Part shown: in pieces, positions 13,095-13,475 of the stretch | How positions within the stretch are numbered: the first letter of the stretch is position 1 | How the letters are laid out: every line of letters begins with the position of its first letter | Source of the DNA: a virus | Taxonomy: Duplodnaviria; Heunggongvirae; Uroviricota; Caudoviricetes | Direction: 5' to 3' (one strand) | DNA length: 23,440 nt | IMG/VR virus record: IMGVR_UViG_2563366964_000006 | Notes under the pieces: generated by a model | Told to the model about the DNA's origin: nothing | What the model saw: the letters and a program-made list of their open reading frames with translations, nothing else | The model's database searches: none | Made by a program: the position numbers and the translations under genes

Positions 13095-13475
13095 TTAGCC
13101 CTTTTTCTTTTCCGACTTTTCAGGCTCAGCGCTGGTCGGTTCAGATGGAGCTGGTGATGCCTGTGCTGCCAGAAGTTGGTCACGTTCAGCGGTGACACTA
13201 TCCAGCTGCGTTTTCAGGTCATTGATATCCTGATTCAGCGCCAACATACCGGCTTCCAGCTCGGCGATGCGCCCATGGGCTTCGCTCAGCTCTGAGGATG
13301 AGGTCTGGGTGCCAACCACGTCCTTCATTTCAGTAACGATGAGGTTGGGCTCAGCCTTCAGAATACGCAGTTCTTCAGGGGTAAAACGGTCGTCAGGATA
13401 AGTGACCGTACTGGCGCTATGAGCCATGCCGAGACGACGGAAGCCGTCGCGGCGGGCAGTGATTTGAACCGGCAT
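13095..13475 (-). CDS. Mu gp35-like hypothetical protein with C-terminal coiled coil
   Basis: 126 aa between the major head and gp36-like genes; coiled-coil segment and Pro/Ser/Glu/Lys-rich C-terminus. Confidence 0.4.
   Translation of the reverse strand: MPVQITARRDGFRRLGMAHSASTVTYPDDRFTPEELRILKAEPNLIVTEMKDVVGTQTSSSELSEAHGRIAELEAGMLALNQDINDLKTQLDSVTAERDQLLAAQASPAPSEPTSAEPEKSEKKKG

Follow-up and report, generated by a model that had tools for sequence, protein, structure and literature searches.

What is the function of the small protein encoded between the major head gene and the adaptor gene in a Mu-like head module? The window, by which we mean the whole stretch of 23,440 nucleotides analysed here, is the late region of a Mu-like prophage, and the interval between its gpT major head gene and its gp36 adaptor gene is filled by one ORF (positions 13095..13475, minus strand, start ATG, 126 aa). 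The original prediction had located the ORF, with no strand given, between the major head and gp36-like genes, which is exact, and had quoted two of its peptides, both present verbatim. It described a globular N-terminal part, a coiled coil and a disordered tail, likened this architecture to scaffold or decoration proteins rather than to a connector, and called the role in Mu-like heads not well defined. The last point is borne out by the PHROG families that the ORF matches, all of which are annotated as ‘unknown function’, and by the fact that gp35 has not been located in the Mu virion. Judging from sequence, the ORF and its architecture are well beyond chance and the gene is conserved. The reading we prefer, to which we give a little less than an even chance, is that the product is an accessory head protein, decoration- or head-fibre-like and trimeric, that attaches to the outside of the expanded gpT capsid. 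Within the window, the relevant features are:

13095..13475, minus strand: whole ORF, 126 aa plus stop, Mu gp35/HI1506-family (FluMu_N) head-module protein (FluMu_N E=2.4e-9; phrog_6188 E=5.9e-34)
13326..13475, minus strand: residues 1-50, FluMu_N alpha/beta domain, putative capsid anchor (AF2, homolog identity, hhalign, PDB profile search)
13290..13325, minus strand: residues 51-62, variable flexible linker (KDVVGTQTSSSE; identity, pLDDT, length variation)
13164..13289, minus strand: residues 63-104, heptad-repeat coiled coil (AF2 helix, heptad indels, register)
13254..13271, minus strand: residues 69-74, RIAELE, trimerisation motif (exact match, in register)
13098..13163, minus strand: residues 105-126, disordered Pro/Ser/Glu/Lys tail (pLDDT), ending in EKKKG (13098..13112)
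14802..15920: protease/scaffold I gene (Pfam Mu-like_Pro E=2.5e-94)
14398..14790, minus strand: p130, 130-aa second auxiliary head protein (phrog_1731 ‘virion structural protein’ E=7.8e-51)
13475..14383, minus strand: gpT major head protein (Pfam Mu-like_gpT E=2.2e-94)
12663..13091: gp36-like adaptor (E=4.3e-38)
late region of the window: gp37 (E=1.3e-49)
11790..12017, minus strand: DUF2635-like 75-aa ORF in the gp37-sheath interval (phrog_208 match; Pfam DUF2635 just below threshold)
late region of the window, beyond the DUF2635-like ORF: sheath gene

The ATG of the ORF (13475-13473) shares its A with the TAA stop codon of gpT, giving TAATG, a 1-base overlap, and a Shine-Dalgarno sequence (GGGGAG) lies 8 nt 5' of the ATG. 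No terminator-like site was found on the coding (minus) strand at this junction, and at the other end 3 nt separate the stop codon from the start of the gp36-like adaptor gene. The gene order I-p130-gpT-FluMu_N-gp36 was kept in all 80 viral loci insofar as they include the flank, and the 1-nt overlap between the gpT stop and the FluMu_N start recurs in 38 of 76. In Mu, by contrast, T and gp35 are separated by a predicted terminator (L001:4069-4088) and a 66-nt gap, which suggests that the relative expression of the gp35-family protein may be quite different in Mu and in the prophage. Further along the module, the DUF2635-like ORF sits at the position of Mu gp38, another small protein that was not located by the Mu cryo-EM study (PMC11915804).

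The N-terminal domain places the ORF in a family that, like the label ‘HI1506-related protein’, had been named before the original prediction was made. Pfam FluMu_N (PF17891) aligns to residues 7-51 with 37.2 bits (E=2.4e-9), above its curated cut-off of 25.8, and near-identical proteins from E. coli, Kluyvera, Citrobacter and Salmonella are named ‘HI1506-related protein’ at NCBI. AlphaFold2 (AF2) predicts strands at residues 3-8, 20-26 and 45-49 and a helix at 33-41, in the element order strand, GFRRxG hairpin, strand, helix, strand. The domain has a mean pairwise identity of 0.77 among homologs, its hairpin contains an invariant RR, and its net charge in the window protein is 0. There are 39 close homologs, and an exhaustive profile search with the domain returned 1308 cluster representatives at E<=1e-3, of which 274 reach E<=1e-10. 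Among the best 150 of these 1308 representatives, protein lengths range from 53 to 259 aa, and FluMu_N is usually N-terminal, sometimes C-terminal and sometimes duplicated. Representatives P0060, P0064, P0070, P0075, P0081 and P0097, with lengths of 197-259 aa, carry two tandem FluMu_N domains followed by a small helical domain of the Mu gp35 type.

NCBIfam yielded no family match, megablast of phages yielded no match, and the E. coli genome collection held relatives at ~80% identity only. Tblastn against cultured phages found three homologs only, in a Klebsiella phage and in Ralstonia phage RS138 (two accessions), and for this reason no close homolog comes with proteomics. Mu gp35, the gene product at the same position and the comparison proposed originally, contains the same FluMu_N domain (E=1.8e-10), and its remainder is unrelated to the window protein. 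Both Mu gp35 and H. influenzae FluMu HI1506 (2OUT) share with the window protein the Pfam domain, the gene position and a plan of anchor domain, unstructured linker and small terminal module. They differ in the terminal module, which is a small helical domain in HI1506 (SAP/HeH-like) and in Mu (‘GEPKVKAV..’) but a coiled coil with a KKKG tip here. The authors of the HI1506 NMR structure reportedly suggested nucleic-acid binding on the basis of positive surface patches and a weak similarity to an RNA-binding fold.

Profile A3, which was built from 66 diverse domains, gave two credible matches by sequence among all PDB sequences: 2out_A (HI1506, E=6.1e-6) and 8rkc_B (JBD30 gp39, E=2.6e-4), with the next at 0.021. 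The breadth of A3 was needed for the 2out match, since the narrower N-domain profile A2 retrieved 2out at no better than E=1.6. A single-sequence phmmer search of the PDB produced coiled-coil noise only, as did the full-length profile, whose top match was the reovirus sigma-1 coiled coil. Neither 2OUT nor 8RKC came back from fold searches with the domain model; the best Foldseek match was ribosomal protein L30 (TM about 0.5, E about 0.2), which is not significant.

The match to JBD30 gp39 connects this domain to a capsid surface. In cryo-EM of Pseudomonas phage JBD30 (PDB 8RKC/8RQE), the ‘minor capsid protein’ gp39 was seen to form trimers on the outside of the mature capsid, at its 3-fold and quasi-3-fold axes (PMC11445458). 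The protein was present on ~5/12 of CsCl-purified particles and procapsids were without it, and order was confined to residues 53-113, where a three-stranded sheet is combined with a short hairpin and a helix in a fold that the authors describe as a Soc-like beta-tadpole (PMC11445458). Its gene, like the window ORF, directly follows a gpT-family capsid gene and precedes the gp36 adaptor gene. FluMu_N matches gp39 residues 68-102 just below threshold (E=9.3e-5), and the PDB entry itself was deposited as ‘Mu-like prophage FluMu N-terminal domain-containing protein’. In an hhalign comparison with the gp39 family, 49 columns aligned at 97.5% probability (E=6.1e-12), with window residues 3-51 corresponding to gp39 residues 57-105, so that window residue i pairs with gp39 residue i+54. 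The order of the AF2 elements agrees with the published description of gp39, and relatives of gp39 that carry the family motif FRRAG bridge the gp39 and window groups; a word-index search with a gp39 domain fragment found three proteins only. Taken from profile alignment, the N-terminal domain of the window protein is homologous to the capsid-bound module of JBD30 gp39.

We compared the published contacts (gp39 E91, S95, D96 and K100; MCP K66, T193, S194, K197 and E198) with their window equivalents. In JBD30, gp39 Glu91, Ser95 and Asp96 form a pocket for MCP Lys66 (PMC11445458). Two of these pocket residues, Ser95/Asp96, fall opposite the family signature [AS][ED]P-x-L-x-V. Of the four gp39 contacts, D96 (window E42) is conserved, and three are not (E91, S95 and K100, corresponding to R37, A41 and I46). 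On the capsid side, the equivalent of Lys66 is a lysine in the window gpT and in 66 of 76 related loci and a glutamine in Mu, and the 193-198 contact region differs in the window gpT. We infer that gpT is the docking partner of the ORF product, with a binding site corresponding to that of gp39.

There are also differences between the two proteins. Both have a disordered tether, rich in Pro, Ser, Thr and acidic residues in gp39, and a lysine-rich end, but in mirrored orientation: the tether is N-terminal and the anchor C-terminal in gp39, and the reverse holds in the window protein. gp39 has no coiled coil and contains a Cys67-Cys72 disulfide hairpin that the window protein lacks, and JBD30 has no p130 gene and a gpT segment order other than that of the window. 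The gp39 tether itself varies, with 113-aa versus 146-aa forms arising through a 33-residue repeat (ATEKPKDETLPGSTD...; L086, L088 and L093 versus L084), and in the relatives L094 and L095 tethers of ~120 residues begin with a KRK-rich stretch.

Beyond the anchor, a linker with a mean pairwise identity of 0.21 and a mean pLDDT of 57 (block 51-60) leads into the coiled coil; the V47-I70 distance varies between 21 and 29 residues among homologs. AF2 predicts a single helix at residues 57-106, with block mean pLDDT values of 92-96 over residues 71-100. The a positions are occupied by L63, I70, M77, I84, L91 and R98, and the d positions by A66, L73, L80, L87, V94 and L101. Mean pairwise identity in the coiled coil is 0.43. 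The span from L73 to R98 differs among 21 homologs by length shifts of -7, 0, +7 or +21 only; all are multiples of 7, and the heptad phase is therefore preserved. The first full heptad, R69-I70-A71-E72-L73-E74, matches the trimerisation motif Arg(g)-h(a)-x-x-h(d)-Glu(e) exactly, and 38 of 72 coiled-coil family members have the motif at this position, compared with 0.8 expected from shuffles. The motif R-h-x-x-h-E specifies parallel three-stranded coiled coils, yet it has been found in some dimers too (PMC3653964). A trimeric state of the window protein, to which the motif points, would fit the 3-fold site of its homolog gp39. The tail has an identity of 0.29 and is predicted to be disordered (pLDDT <50 over residues 110-126), whereas its last five residues, EKKKG, reach 0.75 among homologs. 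Thus, the three parts described in the original prediction are recovered by Pfam, by AF2 (a folded N-domain, the helix at 57-106 and the low-confidence tail) and by the heptad-conserving indels.

In the mechanism that we propose, the FluMu_N domain (residues 1-50) would dock as a trimer at 3-fold and quasi-3-fold positions, as in JBD30 gp39, the 12-residue linker would allow the three chains to converge into the coiled coil, and the acidic, proline-rich tether of ~20 residues would present three KKKG tips. These tips would most likely act as weak electrostatic binders of polyanions (DNA, LPS, capsule) or of an acidic patch on the capsid. Capsid binding is probably weak, dispensable and easily lost. 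Two known systems offer parallels. The beta-tadpole of gp39 was reported by the JBD30 authors to resemble T4 Soc, which, like gp39, forms trimers on the capsid and is dispensable (PMC11445458). Soc and the window protein have no detectable sequence similarity, and Soc is without stalk or tether. The head fibres of phi29 (gp8.5) combine a small base domain at quasi-3-fold capsid sites with a trimeric helical fibre and are dispensable. They are unrelated to the window protein in sequence and fold, and their fibre is built from a supercoiled helix-turn-helix repeat, not from a canonical coiled coil.

The pattern of conservation in the window protein is bipolar: 0.77 in the anchor, 0.75 in the tip and 0.2-0.4 in the spacer. 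A similar layout recurs across the family. A basic C-terminal tail, defined as at least three Lys/Arg in the last eight residues, is present in 74 of 149 family representatives (a binomial chance estimate gives ~5%), and 35 of the 149 have a coiled-coil-like spacer. Pfam tips among 143 members comprise HeH/LEM (5), SAP (3) and Rho_N (1), and some other members have the Mu gp35-type small helical domain as a tip. gp39 and its relatives present the mirror image, with a lysine-rich N-terminal end, a Pro/Thr/Ser/acidic spacer and then the anchor. From the window-type and mirrored gp39-type layouts together, the common plan therefore appears to be an anchor, a variable spacer and a charged or DNA-binding tip. 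A broader extension, which we regard as speculative and unlikely, is that FluMu_N proteins are a general modular capsid-display system of Mu-type heads, in which a Soc-like anchor and a disordered or trimeric coiled-coil spacer would carry an interchangeable polyanion- or DNA-binding tip (a lysine tail, HeH/SAP or a three-helix domain). Their function would then be tethering rather than capsid reinforcement. Maturing heads might be tethered to nucleoid DNA, the place at which packaging must find the genomes of a transposable phage, or virions might stick to extracellular DNA, LPS or capsule, leading to higher adsorption. Within such a system, the window protein would represent the version with a trimeric stalk.

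Virion studies of related phages do not tell a uniform story. The Mu cryo-EM study reports an ‘absence of cement proteins’, and gp35 was not resolved (PMC11915804). PaMx73_38 (A3 31.9 bits) was not among the 13 proteins identified by gel-band mass spectrometry of CsCl-purified PaMx73 virions (PMC4378225). No LC-MS peptides were recorded from CsCl-purified virions either for ORF37 of vB_ThpS-P1 (gene 016; A3 30.5 bits) or for ORF37 of vB_PeaS-P1, and in these two roseophages the 12-copy adaptor gp36 was detected, with 51 and 11 spectra (PMC5488378). There is thus a conflict: cryo-EM finds the JBD30 homolog on the capsid, but proteomics misses the orthologs in three phages that bear p130. The original prediction noted neither the named family nor these proteomic results. 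Gel-band and tryptic mass spectrometry readily overlook small proteins rich in Lys and Pro.

The p130 gene could have a bearing on this conflict. It is present in the window prophage and in all of the 80 related loci with an upstream flank, and absent from Mu and JBD30. Its homologs are gene h in PaMx73 (2.5e-33) and gene 018 / ORF35 in vB_ThpS-P1 (profile E=5.8e-46); p130 homologs were detected in virions of all three phages and were abundant in both roseophages (PMC4378225, PMC5488378). By sequence, the p130 profile matches no protein of solved structure, and among Pfam families it gives only weak matches, below threshold, to Phage_cement_2 and HP1_Orf24. p130 is probably a decoration or cement protein, and it may compete for, or complement, the capsid sites of the FluMu_N protein, including the 3-fold sites.

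The same virion data also count in favour of the idea that the product is a transient head-assembly or packaging factor rather than a virion component, which we consider unlikely but the most serious of the alternatives. In that case, FluMu_N would bind heads during maturation only and then be released, having, for example, marked or stabilised expanded heads or tethered heads to DNA through its basic tip. This would account for a protein that went undetected in three virion proteomes, two of which, by LC-MS, registered a 12-copy adaptor, and that is absent from the Mu virion maps (PMC11915804). The partial, all-or-none occupancy in JBD30 (PMC11445458), the DNA-binding-type tips or basic tails of family members and the universal gene position between capsid and adaptor are likewise compatible with it. 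However, the JBD30 homolog stays on CsCl-purified mature virions and is absent from procapsids (PMC11445458); the family as a whole has no reported assembly defect or interaction; and such small Lys-/Pro-rich proteins easily escape detection in gel-band or tryptic proteomics. A protein that binds nucleic acid freely and has nothing to do with the capsid is distinctly improbable: the non-significant L30 match of the domain model, the invariant RR of the hairpin and the HeH or SAP tips of some members point towards it, but in all 80 loci the gene keeps its place in the head module, the N-domain has no net charge, and the homologous domain has been seen bound to the capsid in JBD30 (PMC11445458).

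Two further alternatives concern the classes named in the original prediction. In the GenBank record of Mu, AF083977, gp35 is annotated as ‘head-to-tail connector complex protein’, and the ORF lies immediately upstream of the adaptor gene gp36. Other phages, such as T4 with its fibritin, have trimeric coiled-coil whiskers, so that a neck- or connector-associated protein, such as fibritin-like trimeric whiskers at the portal vertex, is conceivable. We find this improbable, since the Mu connector has been modelled fully from gp29, gp36 and gp37 without gp35 (PMC11915804), the sole localised homolog occupies icosahedral 3-fold sites and not the neck (PMC11445458), and the ORF has no Pfam, PHROG or PDB similarity to adaptor, stopper or terminator families. 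A scaffolding function is extremely improbable. It would be in keeping with the coiled-coil content, and four family members give weak, sub-threshold matches to Pfam Phage_scaffold (best E=1.5e-4), but these fall in the coiled coil, as do many generic coiled-coil family matches. Moreover, the window has a separate Mu-type protease/scaffold gene upstream (14802..15920), the ORF is downstream of the capsid gene whereas scaffolds are usually encoded upstream, and the JBD30 homolog is absent from procapsids (PMC11445458). Of the phrase ‘scaffold or decoration rather than connector’, then, decoration gains from the gp39 homology and the exclusion of a connector agrees with the complete Mu connector, while scaffold is not supported, given the module's own protease/scaffold gene and scaffold-like signals that are no more than generic coiled-coil matches. 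The accessory protein on the capsid exterior remains our preferred, if tentative, reading.

Previous work had already established the family, its structure and one decoration-type member. Mu gp35/HI1506 has reportedly had a solved structure since 2007, without a function and under a doubtful ‘connector’ label. What appears to be new is (i) the explicit link of Mu gp35/HI1506 to the JBD30 decoration module, (ii) the coiled-coil subfamily that includes the window protein, with its conserved heptads and trimer motif, and (iii) the family-wide anchor-spacer-tip design. Our literature search found no paper mentioning HI1506 or PF17891, or discussing the gp39 link, the coiled-coil subfamily or the tip design. 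Tying the domain to a capsid-surface module would provide a concrete, testable role for a family of at least 1308 sequence clusters, and the stalk-and-tip design, if confirmed, would lend itself naturally to use as a display scaffold on T=7 heads.

Two other observations concern the neighbouring genes. In the window gpT (13475..14383, minus strand), a segment ‘SYGAAR..LKIRPSILVVPPALEDEA..KGTAEVLVVPEL’ lies in the middle of the protein, while the homologous segment is C-terminal, after ‘GFWQ’, in Mu (L001:3139-4056) and in JBD30 gp38 (L003:2610-3524). The two gpT subfamilies therefore look like sequence permutations of each other, and because of this permutation the Pfam Mu-like_gpT match is broken into three stretches. 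The order is window-type in PaMx73 and Mu-type in vB_ThpS-P1; a restriction of p130 to the window-type order was ruled out, as vB_ThpS-P1 combines p130 with the Mu-type order. Finally, a 69-aa ORF (15975..16184, minus strand) with a hydrophobic stretch (VTQWVIIGIGFRVFLWILD) and no PHROG match lies in the 407 nt that separate the G-like gene (16328..16873) from gene I (14802..15920). In PaMx73 this position is taken by anti-CRISPR and aca genes, and in Mu by the late promoter and gyrase site; the 69-aa ORF may be a moron, or else no gene.
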